A stretch of 26,813 bases of DNA from a virus. The notes under the pieces were generated by a model. It ran no database searches, was not told where the DNA came from, and was given only the letters and a program-made list of their open reading frames with translations. The stretch lies in UHGV virus genome UHGV-0083306; one strand, given 5' to 3'. Positions 7,206 to 26,763 of the stretch are shown piece after piece. Position 1 is the first letter of the stretch. Every line of letters starts with the position of its first letter. Both the position numbers and the translations under genes were made by a program.

Positions 7206-7678
7206 ACCTCAATCTCTCTGACCGCTCCGCCAGCCTCTTTGAATTTTGCAATCAGGCTGTCAGCCTTATGCTCGAACTGGCCATAACCAGCACCCGGCAG
7301 TGAAGCCCAGATATTGCTGCAACGGTCGATTGCCTGACGGATATCACCGCGATCAATCATCGGTAAAGCGCCACGCTCTTTAATCTGCTGCAATGCCACA
7401 GCGTCCTGGCTTTTCGGAGAGAAGTCTTTCAGGCCAAGCTGCTTGCGGTAGGCATCCCACCAACGGGAAAGAAGCTGGTAACGTCCGGCGGCTGTTGATT
7501 TGAGTTTGGGGTTTAGCGTGACAAGTTTGCGAGGGTGATCGGAGTAATCAGTGAATAGCTCTCCGCCAACAATGACGTCATAACCATGATTTCTGGTTTT
7601 CTGACGTCCGTTATCAGTTCCCTCTGACCACGCCAGCATATCGAGGAACGCCTTACGTTGATTATTGATTTCCACCAT
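7202..7678 (-). CDS. R: endolysin, lambda R-type lytic transglycosylase
   Basis: 158-aa [42 protein letters not shown]… matching lambda R. Confidence 0.9.
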
Positions 7679-20148: not shown

Positions 20149-20319
20149 ATGCAACAGTTCGCTATTGCAGGGGCGGCATCGGTTCGCCCTTTCAACCCGA
20201 TTTTATCGGTACAGCATTCACGAAAAAATATTTTAACCGGAGCAGACTTTAAACAACCAAGAATGAAAAGTTTGCTCGAAAAGCTTTGGGATATTTTGAA
20301 ACAACAAGGCCGTCCATGA
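20149..20319 (+). CDS. cIII: CIII-like protein (putative FtsH inhibitor)
   Basis: 56 aa from ATG 20149 (SD AAGGAG, 6-nt spacing): MQQFAIAGAASV…KSLLEKLWDILKQQGRP, resembling lambda CIII (MQYAIAG…ESLLERI…LIDILNQPG). Confidence 0.5.
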   Translation: MQQFAIAGAASVRPFNPILSVQHSRKNILTGADFKQPRMKSLLEKLWDILKQQGRP

Positions 20320-20394
20320 GTTTTACAGATAACTGGTCAGACGAAGAATTCATTCGTCAGATGAAAGAATTAATCGGTAACGAAGGAGATATTC

Positions 20395-20583
20395 ATGTCA
20401 CTTGCAACCACAGTGAAGGAGAGCAAGTTACAGAGGCGCATGTACACGCAGCAGGCGTTAATGTATCGCCAGAAGGGAGATCGTGAAGGTGTTCGCGTAT
20501 TTTTAAATGCGGCAAAGACTGAAGTATTAAATCAGCGTTATTTCCTTGGGCCATGTCCATTCTTAGAACAAACATATGAGTAA
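20395..20583 (+). CDS. small protein coupled to erf (Arf/Kil position)
   Basis: 62-aa ORF with strong SD AAGGAGAT; its 3' end overlaps the erf start by 8 nt. Confidence 0.45.
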   Translation: MSLATTVKESKLQRRMYTQQALMYRQKGDREGVRVFLNAAKTEVLNQRYFLGPCPFLEQTYE

Positions 20584-21181
20584 AGAATTTTACGCAAGAC
20601 TGGCAGCTATTCAGGAGAATCTGAACGCGCCAAAGAATCAGTACAACTCATTCGGTAAATATAAATACAGAAGCTGCGAAGACATTCTTGAAGGCGTTAA
20701 GCCGTTACTGAATGGTCTGTTTTTATCAATCAGCGATGAAGTTGTGTTGATTGGTGATCGGTATTACGTGAAAGCCACGGCAACTATTACTGATGGCGAA
20801 AACAGTCATACGGCAACCGCTCTTGCACGAGAGGAAGAAAGCAAGAAAGGAATGGATTCTGCACAAGTTACGGGAGCTACAAGCTCTTATGCACGCAAGT
20901 ATTGCCTCAATGGTTTGTTCGGCATTGATGATGCGAAAGATGCAGATACAGACGAGCATAAACATCAGCAGAACGCAGTAGCAAAGCAATCAAAACCATC
21001 ACCTACACCTGAACAGGTTCTAAAAGCATTCACTGACGCAGCAATGCAGAAAAACACCGTGGAAGAGCTTAAACAGGCGTTCGCCAAAGCGTGGAAGATG
21101 CTCGAAGGCACACCGGAGCAGCACAAAGCGCAGGACGTTTACAACATCAGACGAGACGAATTAGAAGGAGCGGCTGCTTAA
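20576..21181 (+). CDS. erf: Erf single-strand annealing recombinase (P22 Erf-like)
   Basis: 201-aa ORF; MSKEFYARLAAIQENLNAPKNQYNSFGKYKYRSCEDILEGVKPLL… matches remembered P22 Erf. Confidence 0.85.
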   Translation: MSKEFYARLAAIQENLNAPKNQYNSFGKYKYRSCEDILEGVKPLLNGLFLSISDEVVLIGDRYYVKATATITDGENSHTATALAREEESKKGMDSAQVTGATSSYARKYCLNGLFGIDDAKDADTDEHKHQQNAVAKQSKPSPTPEQVLKAFTDAAMQKNTVEELKQAFAKAWKMLEGTPEQHKAQDVYNIRRDELEGAAA

Positions 21182-21564
21182 TGGCACATTCGATTACTGT
21201 AAGACTAAACAAGCCCGCAAGAGAGTTTCAGGCCGGGGAAAATATCGGATTCAACATCCGTGCTGGCGTTCAGTATTACGATCGCCAGACAAAAAAGAAA
21301 GAATGGACAAACTACAGCGCCGTTGTATTTGCCAAGCCGGGAGCGCAAGCGGATTACTACCGTAGCGTTCTGGATGAAGGAGGCATTGTGGAAATTACCG
21401 GAGAAAACATCAGGGTTGATGTTTATCAGGGGCAAAATGGTCAATCAATCACTCTTGAATTACTGAATGCAAAGATTGGATTTGCAGCTTCAGGAAATGG
21501 CCCGCAGCAGCAAAGTAGTAACCAGCAGAACACTCCTGTATACGACGATTCCATCCCATTCTGA
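21181..21564 (+). CDS. SSB-like protein with C-terminal DDSIPF tail
   Basis: 127 aa from ATG 21181 (SD AGGAG; overlaps erf stop TAATG); Gly/Gln-rich linker ending …YDDSIPF, like the SSB acidic tip DDDIPF. Confidence 0.6.
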   Translation: MAHSITVRLNKPAREFQAGENIGFNIRAGVQYYDRQTKKKEWTNYSAVVFAKPGAQADYYRSVLDEGGIVEITGENIRVDVYQGQNGQSITLELLNAKIGFAASGNGPQQQSSNQQNTPVYDDSIPF

Positions 21565-21587
21565 TTCAGAAAAATAAGGATTTAATC

Positions 21588-21884
21588 ATGCCAGCGCCTC
21601 AGTATGGTGCGGATGACCCGCGCCGCTGTTCCGGCAATTCCGTATCGGAGGTGCTGGATAAATTCAGAAAAAACTACGACCTGATAATGTCGCTACCGCA
21701 GGAAACGAAAGAGGAAAAGGAATTTCGCCATTGTATATGGCTTGCAGAGAAAGAAGAACGAGAGCGAATTTACCAGACATCAATCCGACCATTCCGTAAA
21801 GCCACATATACCCACTTCCCTGAATATATCGACCCGCGCCTGCGTAATTACCGCTCACGCTATGGCGCTATCAGTAATGACTGA
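21588..21884 (+). CDS. hypothetical protein (98 aa), possible Abc2-like anti-RecBCD
   Basis: Size and position after erf/ssb fit P22 Abc2; not confirmed by sequence recall. Confidence 0.35.
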
Positions 21885-21894
21885 GGAATTTACC

Positions 21895-22062
21895 ATGAGA
21901 GGACTTGCATACAATCCCGGCATTCTTCCGGCAGAAATGATTATTCGCCAACGCGTAAAGCCAATGCCATCGAGAGAGGAATTGCTTAAGAGAAATAGTT
22001 TCGGTTCTGTTAATGACAACAAATATCTGAATGCGATGTGGCGCAAAGGAGGCAACCAGTGA
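21895..22062 (+). CDS. small hypothetical protein (55 aa)
   Basis: ATG 21895 preceded by SD GAGGAA; in frame with the longer track ORF 21742-22062, which overlaps the upstream gene. Confidence 0.35.
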
Positions 22063-22670
22063 GCAAGATTGACTATCAGGTACTGCGTGAGGCAGCAGTA
22101 GCAATTGAAACAGTAGCAACGCCTCAAAAATTGCTGGCATTTCGTATGAAAGTAACACCTCAGGTTGTGCTGGCTCTACTGGATGAACGAGATGCATTAA
22201 ATGAACGCCTAGCCGAACTGGAGGCTGATTTAGCAGGGCTGGCCGAAGACCACCAGAAAGCGACTGAGTCAATTAAGCAGGCTGATGCAGCTGTTAAGTT
22301 GGCACACGAGAAGTTTTCGGCGCTGGCGGCGGAGAATGCGATGTTGAAGCAACGGACACAGCAACTTATCGACATCATTAGTAATACTGACAATGACTAC
22401 TGCATGTGTGGTTCTGCTATGAAAGACCACGTGCACAGCGGATGTGGTTATCCTACTGGCATGTTCGATTATTACTACAACCAGTGGCTGGAGTCAGATA
22501 ACAAAACCCCAGCCACCGATGCTTTTCTGGCTGAAGTGCGGGCGCAGGGTGTGGATTCAGCGATTAACACAGTCATTGCGATGATGAACCATCAGCATCC
22601 TGTCACATCGAAGGCAATCGACATAATGCGCGTCCATGCCTACCAAATTCGCAAAGGAGTGCAGTCATGA
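22059..22670 (+). CDS. Ead/Ea22-like protein, paralog 1 (Cys/His-rich C-terminus)
   Basis: GTG start with SD AAAGGAGG; N-terminus [14 protein letters not shown]… and coiled coil ([18 protein letters not shown]) shared with 22936-23472; C-terminus …[18 protein letters not shown]…. Confidence 0.55.
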
Positions 22671-22939
22671 GAAAATCATACATCGTTATTCAGCAGTACT
22701 GGTGGTGCAACGAGAAAGGCCATGGAGTTGAATACACGACAGACGGCGTTGACTTCGATAAGCGCGATAAGGCAATCAAGCATGGTCTGAAAACACAAGG
22801 TAGTGATGATTTCAACATCGGCGTTATCGAAGGCGGTAAGCTTGTTTCCTTCGACTGGATGAATGAGCCAGTGGGTGAAAGTGCAGAGACACTTGCTGAA
22901 ATTGCAGAAGCCATCGGTTACGAAGGAACCGCCCAATGA
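22667..22939 (+). CDS. hypothetical protein (90 aa)
   Basis: ORF coupled by ATGA overlap at both ends. Confidence 0.5.
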   Translation: MRKSYIVIQQYWWCNEKGHGVEYTTDGVDFDKRDKAIKHGLKTQGSDDFNIGVIEGGKLVSFDWMNEPVGESAETLAEIAEAIGYEGTAQ

Positions 22940-23472
22940 GCAACATCGACAAACAGGCGCTGCGTGAAATCGCAGCGGCAGCAGTTGGCGCACATGAGCG
23001 CCTTAGTGTTATGCCGCCTGATGACATTTTCGATATCTCACTGGCAGAAGGAACTCAGCTTGATGCAGATATCACTGCCTTGAACGCGCTGAACTCCGCA
23101 GCAAACCCCACTACCGTGCTGGCGATGCTGGATGAGTTGGAAGCCGCAGAGAAGCGCATAGCAGAACTGGAGGGGGGCGCATTCAATCCCGCAATTCTTG
23201 ATGTGGTAGCAGAACGCCAGCGGCAACAGTCGGTTGAAGGATGGACTCCTGAACATGACAACGCATATCAAAATAGCGAATTAGCAGATGCAGCGGCTTG
23301 TTACGCAATTCATGCGCACAACCAAGGTTTCTCCACTCCAGCACATTGGCCGTGGTCTCCTGACTGGTGGAAGCAATCAGGAGCACGCCGCGACTTAGTA
23401 AAAGCTGGCGCTCTTATTCTGGCTGAAATCGAACGCATAGACCGCGCCGCTGGCATCGGTAAGGGGGAGTGA
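22936..23472 (+). CDS. Ead/Ea22-like protein, paralog 2 (possible DUF550-type C-terminus)
   Basis: N-terminus MSNIDKQALREIAAAAV… and VLAMLDELEAAEKRIAELE parallel 22059-22670; distinct C-terminus (EGWTPEHDNAYQNSELADAAACYAIHAHN…WPWSPDWWK). Confidence 0.55.
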   Translation: MSNIDKQALREIAAAAVGAHERLSVMPPDDIFDISLAEGTQLDADITALNALNSAANPTTVLAMLDELEAAEKRIAELEGGAFNPAILDVVAERQRQQSVEGWTPEHDNAYQNSELADAAACYAIHAHNQGFSTPAHWPWSPDWWKQSGARRDLVKAGALILAEIERIDRAAGIGKGE

Positions 23473-23903
23473 TGCTTCAACATCAAATGCAGCCAACATT
23501 TAACACCTGCATGGCTACCTGCGTTGCAATGGTTGCCGGTCAACCTGTCGATGAGGTAGTGGAACGCTGGCATCAGAAATTCCACGACAAAACAGACTGG
23601 CTCGACGACGCGCTGGATTATTACAAAATCCCGTATTTTTACGGAAGCCAGCGCAAGGCCGAATTGCTTTACGGGTTTATTTACTTCCTGACCGTTCCGT
23701 CACTGAACATCAAAGGCGGCCTGCATCAGATTCTGATGTCGTTAACGGCAGAACGCGGCATAGAAGTATTTGACCCGGCAATGGGTCGGCCAGGATCAAA
23801 ATATTACGTTTGGGGTGAAGCGCAGAACGATGATCAATTCGGCGTTATCTCCTGGTGCGTCGATTTATCGGTTCCGGTAGTGCAACAGAAAGGTGAGGAC
23901 TAA
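23469..23903 (+). CDS. hypothetical protein (144 aa), possible cysteine-peptidase-like fold
   Basis: N-terminal Q…NTC…TC…G motif, later His (GGLHQILMS); weak resemblance to C39-type peptidases; speculative. Confidence 0.4.
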   Translation: MMLQHQMQPTFNTCMATCVAMVAGQPVDEVVERWHQKFHDKTDWLDDALDYYKIPYFYGSQRKAELLYGFIYFLTVPSLNIKGGLHQILMSLTAERGIEVFDPAMGRPGSKYYVWGEAQNDDQFGVISWCVDLSVPVVQQKGED

Positions 23904-23906
23904 CCC

Positions 23907-24758
23907 ATGAGCACTATTACCAAAGAACGTATTGAATTGTTCATTAAAAATCCGCTTGAAAACGGGCTTACCCGTGGTGAACAAATGGAACTGGCACGGA
24001 TTGCGCTGGCATCGCTCGAAGCGGAGCCGGTGGCGTGGTTGCTGTCAGGAGGCGGGGAAAAAAACAACGTCAGCTTCGATAGTGGCAATGCTTATGCCGA
24101 CCCGCTGCGAGAAGTAACGCCGCTTTACGCCTCCCCGCCAGCGCCGGTATCTGTGCCTGATTTGAAACCAGTTGGCTTTTTATTCGTGTCCGATGATGGC
24201 TCAGTTGCTTATTCTCCTGCTGGCTGGCCCATGAAAGGATTTAATCTAATCGGTCCGATTTACGGTGATGTGAACGCCTGCCGCGCCGCCATGCTTCAGT
24301 CCGATGGTACCCTCACCAATGAAGGTACCATGCAGTTGTCCGGTAATTCCGAACAAATCGAACCCGTAAGTAATCGTGATGAGTTGCCGTTGGACTATCT
24401 GCAAGGTCACAAAGACGGCCTTGAATGGGCGGCGCAACTGGCAGAGGCCAATCATCCGCAAACAGGTGACTGGTTATACGACGACCCAATCGATCTTGCC
24501 AGGGCGATTCGCAAAGGTCCGGATATGCCTACTGTTCAGGCTGGCAACTCTCCGGTAACTCCGGATGGTTGGATTCCGGTAAGCAAAAGGATGCCGGAGC
24601 CTTATGAATACGTTCTTGTAACTGATGGTTTTGATGGCTGTGAGGTTATGCGTGTTAATACAGATGGCTACTGGGGGCCGACAAAGAGTTTATATCCAGG
24701 TGGTATTACCCACTGGATGCCACTACCGGAACCACCGCAGGAGGTTAACCGTGGCTAA
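23907..24758 (+). CDS. DUF551 domain protein
   Basis: 283-aa ORF ending …DGFDGCEVMRVNTDGYWGPTKSLYPGGITHWMPLPEPP, a C-terminal signature recalled from DUF551 prophage proteins. Confidence 0.55.
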   Translation: MSTITKERIELFIKNPLENGLTRGEQMELARIALASLEAEPVAWLLSGGGEKNNVSFDSGNAYADPLREVTPLYASPPAPVSVPDLKPVGFLFVSDDGSVAYSPAGWPMKGFNLIGPIYGDVNACRAAMLQSDGTLTNEGTMQLSGNSEQIEPVSNRDELPLDYLQGHKDGLEWAAQLAEANHPQTGDWLYDDPIDLARAIRKGPDMPTVQAGNSPVTPDGWIPVSKRMPEPYEYVLVTDGFDGCEVMRVNTDGYWGPTKSLYPGGITHWMPLPEPPQEVNRG

Positions 24759-25035
24759 CCTGCAACTAGCCGTTAAAGGTGAATACTTCGATGCCATCAT
24801 TCGCGGAGAGAAAACGGAAGAGTATCGCCTGTGTAATGACTACTGGAATAAGCGAATTATGTTCAGGGAGTATGACCGCCTGATTATCACAAAGGGATAT
24901 CCGAAGCGCGACGATTCCAGCCGCAGAATTGATGTTCCGTATGACGGATATGAAATCAAGACAATCACACATCCGCACTTCGGCGATAAACCGGTAAAGG
25001 TGTTCGCGATAAAGGTGAATATCGGCAATGAATAA
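24751..25035 (+). CDS. small protein (94 aa), possibly ASCH/PUA-like
   Basis: GTG start with SD AGGAGG; …LAVKGEYFDAIIRGEKTEEYR… resembles the N-terminal ASCH motif; weak. Confidence 0.4.
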   Translation: MANLQLAVKGEYFDAIIRGEKTEEYRLCNDYWNKRIMFREYDRLIITKGYPKRDDSSRRIDVPYDGYEIKTITHPHFGDKPVKVFAIKVNIGNE

Positions 25036-25094
25036 CAATCCTCGAACTCGCGGGGATTTCTTTTATCTGAACTCGCTACGGCGGGTTTTGTTTT

Positions 25095-25406
25095 ATGGAG
25101 ATGATTATGGTCTGTTCAACATTCAACCCTCTAACGTTACAGAAATACCAGCCAGACCCTGAAGATTTATGCTCACTGTGTGGCGGAAATCATGGAAAAG
25201 CCGCCATGATCGAATGTAAGGACAAAATCCACATATGCCTTAATTGCGTTGATGTCCTCGTTGATATCAAAAATGAAAGAGAAGATAAAAAGCGTAGCGA
25301 GGCTATTCGCGCCTTAGATTCATGGATGCGAGATGGGTATAGTGCTGCGCAAATTTATGACTTAGCAATATCAAAAGGCGAAATACCAGGAGTGCGTATC
25401 GAATAA
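25095..25406 (+). CDS. hypothetical zinc-ribbon protein (Ea8.5 position)
   Basis: 103-aa ORF with CSLCGG…CLNC; immediately upstream of xis. Confidence 0.5.
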   Translation: MEMIMVCSTFNPLTLQKYQPDPEDLCSLCGGNHGKAAMIECKDKIHICLNCVDVLVDIKNEREDKKRSEAIRALDSWMRDGYSAAQIYDLAISKGEIPGVRIE

Positions 25407-25496: not shown

Positions 25497-25715
25497 ATGT
25501 ACTTGACACTTCAGGAGTGGAACGCACGCCAGCGACGCCCAAGAAGCCTTGAAACAGTTCGTCGATGGGTACGCGAGTGCAGGATATTCCCTCCTCCGGT
25601 TAAGGATGGAAGAGAGTATCTGTTCCACGAATCAGCGGTAAAGGTTGACTTAAATCGACCAGTAACAGGTAGCCTTTTGAAGAGGATCAGAAATGGGAAG
25701 AAGGCGAAGTCATGA
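25497..25715 (+). CDS. xis: excisionase Xis (lambda)
   Basis: 72-aa ORF MYLTLQEWNARQRRPRSLETVRRWVRECRIFPPPVKDGREYLFHESAVKVDLNRPVTG… matches lambda Xis; overlaps int. Confidence 0.92.
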   Translation: MYLTLQEWNARQRRPRSLETVRRWVRECRIFPPPVKDGREYLFHESAVKVDLNRPVTGSLLKRIRNGKKAKS

Positions 25716-26763
25716 GCGCCGGGATTTACCCCCTAACCTTTATATAAGAAACAATGGATATTACTGCTACAGGGACCCAAGGACGGGTAAAGAGTTTGGA
25801 TTAGGCAGAGACAGGAGGATAGCAATTACTGAAGCAATACAGGCAAACATTGAGTTATTTTCAGGACACAAACACAAGCCTCTGACAGCGAGAATCAACA
25901 GTGATAATTCTGTTACGTTACATTCATGGCTTGATCGCTACGAAAAAATCCTCGCCAGCAGAGGAATCAAGCAGAAGACACTCATAAATTACATGAGCAA
26001 AATTAAAGCAATAAGGAGGGGTCTGCCTGATGCTCCACTTGAAGACATCACCACAAAAGAAATTGCGGCAATGCTCAATGGATACATAGACGAGGGCAAG
26101 GCGGCATCAGCCAAGTTAATCAGATCAACACTGAGCGATGCATTCCGAGAGGCAATAGCTGAAGGCCATATAACAACAAACCCGGTCGCTGCCACTCGCG
26201 CAGCAAAATCAGAGGTAAGGAGATCAAGGCTTACGGCTGACGAATACCTGAAAATTTATCAAGCAGCAGAATCATCACCATGTTGGCTCAGACTTGCAAT
26301 GGAACTGGCTGTTGTTACCGGGCAGCGAGTTGGTGATTTATGCGAAATGAAGTGGTCTGATATCGTAGATGGATATCTTTATGTCGAGCAAAGCAAAACG
26401 GGCGTAAAAATTGCCATACCTACAACATTGCATGTTGATGCTCTCGGGATATCAATGAAGGAAACACTTGATAAATGCAAAGAGATTCTTGGCGGAGAAA
26501 CCATAATTGCATCTACTCGTCGTGAACCGCTTTCATCCGGCACAGTATCAAGGTATTTTATGCGCGCACGAAAAGCATCAGGTCTTTCCTTCGAAGGGGA
26601 TCCGCCTACCTTTCACGAGTTGCGCAGTTTGTCTGCAAGACTCTATGAGAAGCAGATAAGCGATAAGTTTGCTCAACATCTTCTCGGGCATAAGTCGGAC
26701 ACCATGGCATCACAGTATCGTGATGACAGAGGCAGGGAGTGGGACAAAATTGAAATCAAATAA
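25693..26763 (+). CDS. int: integrase (lambda Int, tyrosine recombinase)
   Basis: 356-aa ORF MGRRRSHERRDLPPNLYIRNNGYYCYRDPRTGKEFGLGRDRR… matching lambda Int throughout. Confidence 0.95.
   Translation: MGRRRSHERRDLPPNLYIRNNGYYCYRDPRTGKEFGLGRDRRIAITEAIQANIELFSGHKHKPLTARINSDNSVTLHSWLDRYEKILASRGIKQKTLINYMSKIKAIRRGLPDAPLEDITTKEIAAMLNGYIDEGKAASAKLIRSTLSDAFREAIAEGHITTNPVAATRAAKSEVRRSRLTADEYLKIYQAAESSPCWLRLAMELAVVTGQRVGDLCEMKWSDIVDGYLYVEQSKTGVKIAIPTTLHVDALGISMKETLDKCKEILGGETIIASTRREPLSSGTVSRYFMRARKASGLSFEGDPPTFHELRSLSARLYEKQISDKFAQHLLGHKSDTMASQYRDDRGREWDKIEIK

Follow-up and report, generated by a model that had tools for sequence, protein, structure and literature searches.

Two mosaic Ead/Ea22-family proteins in the early-left operon of a lambdoid Escherichia coli phage: modules, recombination junctions and a widespread helical C-terminal domain

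The closest described relatives of the genes reported here are the Ea22 proteins of lambda and the Stx phages and the Oad2 protein of phage HK446. Ea22 proteins have a three-part plan with mosaic C-termini, occur as several variants in one genome and include a variant bearing DUF551 (PMC7093339, PMC10834534). The full-length Ea22 proteins of lambda and P27 are tetramers and their C-terminal domains are dimers, and both function and tetramerisation need the N-terminal and coiled-coil part (PMC10834534). Deletion of ea22 results in faster induction and lower lysogeny (PMC7093339, PMC10834534). Oad2, which is Gp27 of HK446 and is related to P22 EaE, binds directly to P2 OLD, an abortive-infection nuclease (an ABC-ATPase/TOPRIM tRNase), and blocks both its toxicity and its defence; a homolog from HK75, 54% identical to Oad2, does not inhibit OLD, and fusion of Oad2 relatives to EaD/Ea22 proteins is mentioned in the same preprint (bioRxiv 10.64898/2026.07.10.737580). 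Here we describe two genes of the virus genome UHGV-0083306, whose whole stretch of 26,813 nucleotides is called the window below. They encode protein A (203 residues, 22059–22670) and protein B (178 residues, 22936–23472) in the early-left (PL) operon. The DNA of the window is that of an E. coli prophage or phage of lambdoid type (HK97/HK022/P22-mosaic).

Proteins A and B share an N-terminal module. Both exceed the gathering score (27 bits) of the Pfam family PF13935 (Ead_Ea22), A with 40.8 bits (E=4e-10, residues 2–89) and B with 68.3 bits (E=1e-18, residues 2–79), and BLASTP aligns residues 1–56 of A with residues 1–80 of B (E=1e-6, 34% identity, a gap of 24 residues). The similarity is confined to two blocks, which are the two longest direct DNA repeats in 21500–25100. 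The first repeat (22046–22103 versus 22923–22980) comprises the Shine-Dalgarno sequence (SD), the start codon and the segment MSxIDxQxLRE, and the second (22167–22224 versus 23116–23173) encodes VLAxLDE...AELE; identity is 71% over 58 nt in either case. No mutual similarity between the C-terminal parts of A and B was detected by BLASTP. Statements on coiled coils here and below are based on the length of helix free of Pro and Gly, on coiled-coil hits in Pfam and on the literature; a heptad-periodicity script was uninformative.

A preliminary description of this DNA had regarded the two genes as tandem paralogs with a common N-terminal module, a common coiled-coil block and unrelated C-termini. 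The N-terminal similarity, on whose significance that description staked its view, is significant both in the BLASTP alignment and by the Pfam threshold; the coil block recurs as VLAxLDE...AELE, though it is short in B, and nothing in the C-terminus of A aligns with that of B. The residues singled out in the C-termini were also correctly read: that of A is rich in Cys and His (C115, C117, H124, H126 and C129), and B contains E101-G-W-T-P-E-H-D108 and W138-P-W140, both unchanged or almost unchanged across homologs. Membership of both proteins in Ead_Ea22 speaks for paralogy, but the word tandem has to be given up, since an open reading frame (ORF) of 90 residues at 22667–22939 separates the two genes.

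Judged by its sequence, A is an Ead/Ea22 head fused to a body of the P22 EaE/HK446 Oad2 type with a Cys/His insert. The first 45 residues align with the N-terminus of lambda Ea22 (BLASTP E=8e-6). Residues ~47–203 belong to the EaE family, as found by comparison with translated P22 eaE (E=2e-8) and HK446 gp27, that is, Oad2 (E=2e-10, overall identity 28%); B showed no match to the EaE/Oad2 family. Among PHROGs, A matches phrog_368 (3e-48) and phrog_614 (3e-28), and PHROGs 368, 492, 614 and 14548 are common to A and the Oad2 comparison. An alignment of eight sequences resolved six modules in A, mapped onto the DNA as follows.

22059–22160, + strand: head, residues 1–34, Ead/Ea22-type (BLASTP and DNA repeats)
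22161–22382, + strand: long Pro-free predicted helix, residues 35–108, ~75 residues with one Gly (G60)
22383–22505, + strand: Cys/His cassette, residues 109–149, variable middle module
22506–22553, + strand: invariant junction, residues 150–165, a mosaic boundary
22554–22670, + strand: variable tail, residues 166–203, predicted helical hairpin ending in IRKGVQS (AlphaFold2 predicted local distance difference test, pLDDT, ~88–92)

In the alignment of the A family, the variable tail is followed by a conserved QxRKG end. The long helix contains the coil core (AKCAALAAENAxLK type) common to EaE and Oad2. Two head types occur: A and gp35 of mEp213 (which, with mEp043 and Bas106, is among the nearest phage records to the window) have the Ead head, and HK446 Gp27, HK75 gp28 and many others have MKQMxLIEMDGFLKG. 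The cassette, ~40 residues long, has the pattern C-x-C-x6-H-x4-C, and, in those homologs shown that bear the cassette, C115, C117, H124 and C129 are retained while H126 varies. Read as a motif, this pattern suggests a small zinc knuckle (putative CCHC). An AlphaFold2 model of residues 101–203 gives a confident generic helical hairpin for the tail and pLDDT below 50 for the Cys/His part. Low-scoring hits of A to LmuB, DruC, SMC and spanin proteins all fall in the coil and were rejected as coiled-coil noise.

The location of A agrees with its assignment to the EaE/Oad2 family. The gene order abc2, DUF2737, EaE/Oad2 slot is the same in the window, HK446, HK75 and P22. The homology of the body of A to Oad2, together with the shared genomic slot, lends indirect support to the anti-defence role that the preliminary description had suggested for such genes, and we regard this role for A as plausible, at somewhat less than even confidence. 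What, then, would determine the target? Oad2 and HK75 gp28 have head and coil in common, their differences being mostly in the middle and tail cassettes; since the HK75 homolog is inactive against OLD, we infer by analogy that these two cassettes set specificity. For the same reason, A is unlikely to act on P2 OLD through the same interface, and, as its variable cassettes are not those of Oad2, its target probably differs from that of Oad2. The possibility that A is a functional equivalent of Oad2 was rejected, because both variable cassettes differ and the closer homolog of HK75 already fails. By analogy, the most fitting reading of A is that of a paralogous binder, encoded in an Oad2-type locus and directed at another target.

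Protein B matches phrog_19550 (8e-73), and its first 11 residues are identical to those of P22 EaD (11/11). Its segments are as follows.

22936–23109, + strand: Ead head (MSNIDKQALRE...) and variable spacer, residues 1–58
23110–23172, + strand: short coil TTVLAMLDELEAAEKRIAELE, residues 59–79; homology to mEp213 gp34 ends within it, at 23141
23173–23460, + strand: conserved helical domain, residues 80–175
23461–23472, + strand: terminal K-G-E and stop codon (AAGGGGGAGTGA), serving too as SD and start overlap for orf144

The coil block of B, ~21 residues, lies between P58 and G80. The domain that follows is predicted to consist of four helices (AlphaFold2 pLDDT 90). In 33 sequences of this domain, clustered below 72% pairwise identity and 54–72% identical to the domain of B itself, 22 columns are invariant; the invariant residues include E93, R94, R96, Q97, G102, W103, D108, Y123, W138-P-W140, K146, R151 and the LVKAGALILAEIERIDR helix. 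Counted as clusters at 50% identity, 15,168 representatives contain the domain at E<=1e-3 and 8,652 at E<=1e-10; it can be a protein on its own, the last part of a long protein or an N-terminal part. Its carriers include phages of Enterobacteria, Pseudomonas, Rhodobacter, Burkholderia, Acinetobacter, Hafnia and the cyanobacterium Microcystis. The version with an Ead head is common in E. coli, where one cluster of 181-residue proteins is present on 935 contigs. No Pfam, NCBIfam or PADLOC model covers the domain, whole B has no PADLOC hit, and the matching PHROGs are all of unknown function. In other phages, the domain has no consistent functional partner among its neighbours; the one regularity is a place in early accessory regions, in one case next to an HD phosphohydrolase. 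In Hafnia phage yong2 (2955–3827), a B-type domain ends a protein of 290 residues encoded right after genes of the YfdQ family and of an HD phosphohydrolase. In a gene order of the CPS-53 type, this is the position of the DUF551 gene yfdS.

What could such a domain do? In three structural searches, the all-alpha nucleoside triphosphate (NTP) pyrophosphohydrolases were the best neighbours, although the matches were weak, with scores below significance. The domain of B resembles these enzymes (MazG, DCTPP1/RS21-C6, AF0060 and phage MazZ/DUF550) in being a small four-helix bundle and in carrying many conserved acidic residues. An arrangement N-terminal to DUF551, as known for DUF550, occurs as well: one protein of 338 residues (P0355) has a B-type helical domain joined in front of its DUF551. 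The domain differs from these enzymes in that no sequence or profile similarity is seen and that the long loop containing WPW has no obvious counterpart. An NTP-pyrophosphohydrolase-like role, suggested by the modelled fold, is possible for the B domain, and we consider it doubtful.

The comparison with related phages shows the shuffling of modules directly. Up to residue 163, gp35 of mEp213 is almost identical to A, and an unrelated tail follows; at the DNA level, 96% identity extends up to 22546, at the end of the invariant junction, where homology stops. Gp34 of mEp213 is 98.6% identical to residues 1–69 of B, with the single substitution M64L, and past residue 69 has a P22-EaD-type C-terminus in place of the helical domain. 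The corresponding DNA is 98.6% identical up to 23141, in the codons for LDELE. The 45-nt junction of A (22504–22548) is 95.6% identical to HK446 oad2, with unrelated flanks. Among homologs of the C-terminal region of A, the Cys/His cassette and the junction are combined with at least 10 different tails and with many heads. Among the sequences retrieved, clustering of the N-terminal heads gives 22 groups for the A body (97 carriers) and 139 for the B domain (245 carriers). In HK446, between oad2 (gp27) and xis, there is a non-coding remnant of an Ead-type gene start (7468–7508), 95–98% identical to the starts of A and B; its sequence suggests a deletion or recombination event at the conserved junction.

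Domain shuffling, as the preliminary description had it, is therefore well founded, the same two heads being joined to other tails in mEp213 with exact breakpoints. Its more specific idea of swapped C-terminal domains needs refining for A, whose C-terminal two thirds are a body of the EaE/Oad2 family rather than one swapped domain, and exchange is not limited to the C-termini: it occurs at no fewer than four conserved junctions, and heads are swapped as freely as tails. The domain searches proposed there for each C-terminus returned no model from Pfam, NCBIfam or PADLOC for either of these parts, and structure prediction was confident for the domain of B and not for the Cys/His cassette of A. 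Since mosaicism of Ea22 and fusions of EaE-type to Ead proteins have already been published, the mosaicism of A and B is of a known kind, of which they are new examples. We are highly confident of this structural and evolutionary description of the two proteins.

The conserved junctions include the ends of the genes. The last codons of successive genes hold the SD of the next, overlapping gene; the endings in question are RKGGNQ, RKGVQS, YEGTAQ, GKGE and QKGED, at 22040–22062, 22650–22670, 22920–22939, 23455–23472 and 23885–23903. Examples of the SD sequences within these tails are AAAGGAGG, AAAGGAG, TAAGGGGGA and AAAGGTGAGGA. In A, the codons of the final IRKGVQS carry the SD of the following gene, orf90. 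What the '+GE' motif at the C-terminus of Ea22 proteins signifies has been called unknown (PMC7093339). We offer the explanation that this ending is conserved because its codons are the SD of the next, translationally coupled gene, and the sequences here indicate that such an overlap probably accounts for the C-terminal tripeptide of Ea22 proteins.

We propose that A and B are members of a hyper-mosaic Ead/Ea22–EaE accessory gene set in the PL operon of a lambdoid E. coli prophage. Both would be built of short modules in a row, in which an N-terminal head and a coiled coil are followed by one or more variable cargo cassettes. The coiled coil most likely oligomerises the protein, by analogy with the tetrameric Ea22 of lambda and P27, with which the preliminary description's idea of an oligomerisation scaffold agrees. 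Homologous recombination between phages would reshuffle the cassettes at conserved junctions, namely the SD with MSxIDxQxLRE, the LDELE and AAENAxLK segments in the coil, the invariant junction of A and the R/K-G tails. As to A, our best guess is inhibition, through binding, of an immune protein of the host or of a prophage; the immune protein in question would probably be a guard against the recombination module that lies just upstream and manipulates RecBCD. Specificity would reside in the Cys/His cassette (possibly a CCHC zinc knuckle) and the helical-hairpin tail. In B, the head and coil would present the conserved four-helix domain in multiple copies; possibly, that domain is a nucleotide-binding or nucleotide-hydrolysing module, divergent but of the all-alpha NTP-pyrophosphohydrolase kind. 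On the explanation as a whole, a mosaic accessory set, our confidence is evenly divided.

Several observations weigh against parts of this proposal. The features common to A and Oad2 are those of the scaffold, i.e., the coil core, the junction and the end of the tail, and A lacks both the head of Oad2 and its two variable cassettes; moreover, even a homolog 54% identical to Oad2 is inactive against OLD (bioRxiv 10.64898/2026.07.10.737580). The low pLDDT of the Cys/His cassette leaves the motif as the basis for zinc binding, and PADLOC returned for A weak hits in the coil region only (LmuB and DruC, E>=7e-4). As regards B, the canonical ExxE...ExxD metal motif is not conserved in the domain, the position equivalent to the MazG-type ExxD (D118, the aspartate of ELAD) being variable; searching the 33 diverse domain sequences against Pfam at E<=10 gave no recurrent family, and the profile built from them found nothing among PDB sequences. 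Finally, the sole published phenotype of the Ea22 family is pro-lysogenic, not anti-defence.

That phenotype leads directly to the question of whether A and B are lysis–lysogeny regulators like the pro-lysogenic Ea22 of lambda and the Stx phages, with C-termini that tune an interaction with host stress or regulatory functions. Both proteins are bona fide members of PF13935, the N-terminus of A aligns with lambda Ea22, the genes are placed like lambda ea22 between the recombination genes and xis/int, and an ea22 deletion speeds induction and lowers lysogeny. The part common to A, B and lambda Ea22 is, however, limited to the head and the start of the coil. The C-termini match no solved PDB chain: searching A and B against all PDB chains (phmmer, E<=1) gave nothing relevant, in a copy in which the presence of the entry for the C-terminal domain of lambda Ea22 was unconfirmed. 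Lambda Ea22 itself has no known molecular mechanism or partner, and the body of A belongs to the EaE/Oad2 family, in which an anti-defence member has been demonstrated. Such a regulatory role seems to us unlikely, yet well worth bearing in mind, and it is compatible with an anti-defence role because OLD also blocks lysogenisation.

The confinement of the A/B similarity to two blocks of 58 nt, the first of which includes the SD and the start codon, raises a different question, that is, whether the shared N-terminus is a linker for recombination and translation initiation conserved as DNA, with A and B not being functionally related paralogs at all. B and P22 EaD agree in all of their first 11 codons and differ in the rest; a non-coding remnant downstream of HK446 oad2 still has the start segment at 97.6% identity; and the R/K-G-E tails at the gene ends are accounted for by SD sequences. 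A purely DNA-level linker is nevertheless hard to reconcile with the Ead_Ea22 profile, which covers 78–88 residues of each protein well above the threshold, with the second block (P..VLxLLDE...AELE), which is kept in lambda Ea22 as protein, and with the need of Ea22 for its N-terminal and coil part in function and tetramerisation (PMC10834534). We think it rather improbable. Far more improbable still is that A is a fusion with an HNH (homing) endonuclease. Many cassette-bearing homologs (P0135, P0138, P0142, P0144 and others) are named 'hNH endonuclease', Oad2–HNH fusions have been mentioned (bioRxiv 10.64898/2026.07.10.737580), and the cassette does contain Cys and His; but A matches no HNH or nuclease model of Pfam and NCBIfam at E<=0.1, the isolated cassette and P0142 match none in NCBIfam at E<=1, and the cassette shows neither the canonical H-N-H arrangement nor, in a low-confidence AlphaFold2 model, a beta-beta-alpha fold. 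We rejected the label on homologs that combine an EaE/Oad2 head with the cassette, as it has no support from hidden Markov models and looks like a propagated mis-annotation. Among these readings, the mosaic accessory set is the one that we prefer, and its setting in the window is as follows.

20316–20486, + strand: Gp33 homolog, 56 residues, first gene of a Gp33/Erf/Gp31/Abc2 module, as in HK446 and HK75
20576–21181, + strand: erf, upstream recombination module
21181–21564, + strand: gp31/SSB-like homolog, upstream recombination module
21588–21884, + strand: abc2, upstream recombination module
21895–22062, + strand: DUF2737 ORF, directly before protein A
22046–22052, + strand: SD of protein A (AAGGAGG), in the last codons (RKGG) of the DUF2737 gene
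22059–22670, + strand: protein A, 203 residues, GTG start at 22059, with the SD 6 nt before the start
22667–22939, + strand: orf90, the intervening ORF of 90 residues, phrog_26897, function unassigned, translationally coupled on both sides
22936–23472, + strand: protein B, 178 residues, ATG start
23469–23903, + strand: orf144, 144 residues, phrog_4049 (unknown function)
23907–24758, + strand: third modular protein, 283 residues, with a non-Ead head and a C-terminal DUF551 (E=2.6e-12)
25693–26763: integrase

The early-left operon runs on the + strand from ~19 kb on. Consecutive genes are all co-directional, with stop/start overlaps (ATGA, GTGA, TGATG), and a scan of 20500–25037 found no strong terminator-like site (stem of at least 6 pairs) on the + strand, the sole match being a weak one of 5 pairs at 22987 within B. 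Given these overlaps and the result of the scan, the genes of the block are most likely co-transcribed and translationally coupled. Of the 56 residues of the Gp33 homolog, 53 agree with HK446 Gp33, which is the trigger of OLD and is thought to manipulate RecBCD (bioRxiv 10.64898/2026.07.10.737580). In mEp213, the counterpart of the 90-residue ORF is placed after both Ea22-like genes. The N-terminus of orf144 has a conserved-looking segment, NTCMATCVAM, and the protein has no sequence match in Pfam, NCBIfam, PADLOC or PDB. Some carriers of the B domain have the segment ELARIALASLEA of the DUF551 protein in their heads as well. Pieces of the region 21895–23903 are present in 1,952 of 5,426 complete E. 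coli genomes, in up to 7 places per genome and with 204 places on plasmids; coverage of at least 80% is found in a single one of these genomes, that of strain ABWA45.

Between their recombination genes and xis/int, lambdoid phages have a hotspot that is under-studied and whose first anti-defence members are only now emerging. For two of its genes, the present analysis contributes a residue-level map of modules and recombination junctions. It ties A to the scaffold of the anti-OLD protein Oad2 and thereby nominates the Cys/His and tail cassettes as candidates for specificity towards another immune target, and it draws attention to an abundant, strongly conserved and unannotated phage domain at the C-terminus of B. 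The overall picture of mosaic phage accessory genes is unchanged. A bolder combination would make the B domain a large phage family forming a divergent branch of the NTP pyrophosphohydrolases and, jointly, A an Oad2-class inhibitor of new specificity. In that case, the oligomeric B domain would hydrolyse or sequester a nucleotide, either an immune signal or a component of the dNTP pool, and so aid early infection, and A would inhibit a different ABC-ATPase/TOPRIM or RecBCD-guarding immune system by means of its zinc-knuckle cassette. We give this combination only a slim chance.

When set beside the described systems, A and B resemble the Ea22 proteins of lambda and the Stx phages in the MSxIxxQxLRE head and the P..VLxLLDE start of the coil, in the general plan of head, coiled coil and variable C-terminal domain, in the presence of several variants in one genome, and in their early PL-operon place between the recombination genes and xis/int. 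With lambda Ea22, BLASTP aligns only the N-terminus of either protein (head and start of the coil), and no link between the alpha/beta C-terminal domain of lambda Ea22 and the C-termini of A and B was seen in the PDB sequence searches. B also shares the K/R-G-E C-terminus of Ea22, but has a far shorter coil. DUF551, which is the type of C-terminal domain in the V2 variant of Stx-phage Ea22, is found here on the third gene (23907–24758) and not on A or B.

The likeness of A to HK446 Oad2 and P22 EaE lies in the coil core, the invariant junction and the QxRKG end, and extends to the slot right after abc2 and DUF2737, downstream of the Gp33/Erf/Gp31/Abc2 module. Different from Oad2, A has an Ead head rather than one of the MKQMxLIEMDGFLKGKCIPRDLKVNE type, a Cys/His middle cassette and another tail. 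B, in turn, is like P22 EaD in its first 11 residues, in the layout of head, coil and C-terminal domain and in the KGE end, and unlike it in having a four-helix C-terminal domain instead of the ...QDGAFRDGL..GQTDDQSGF... tail. The two are bridged by gp34 of mEp213, which joins the head of B to a C-terminal domain of the EaD type.

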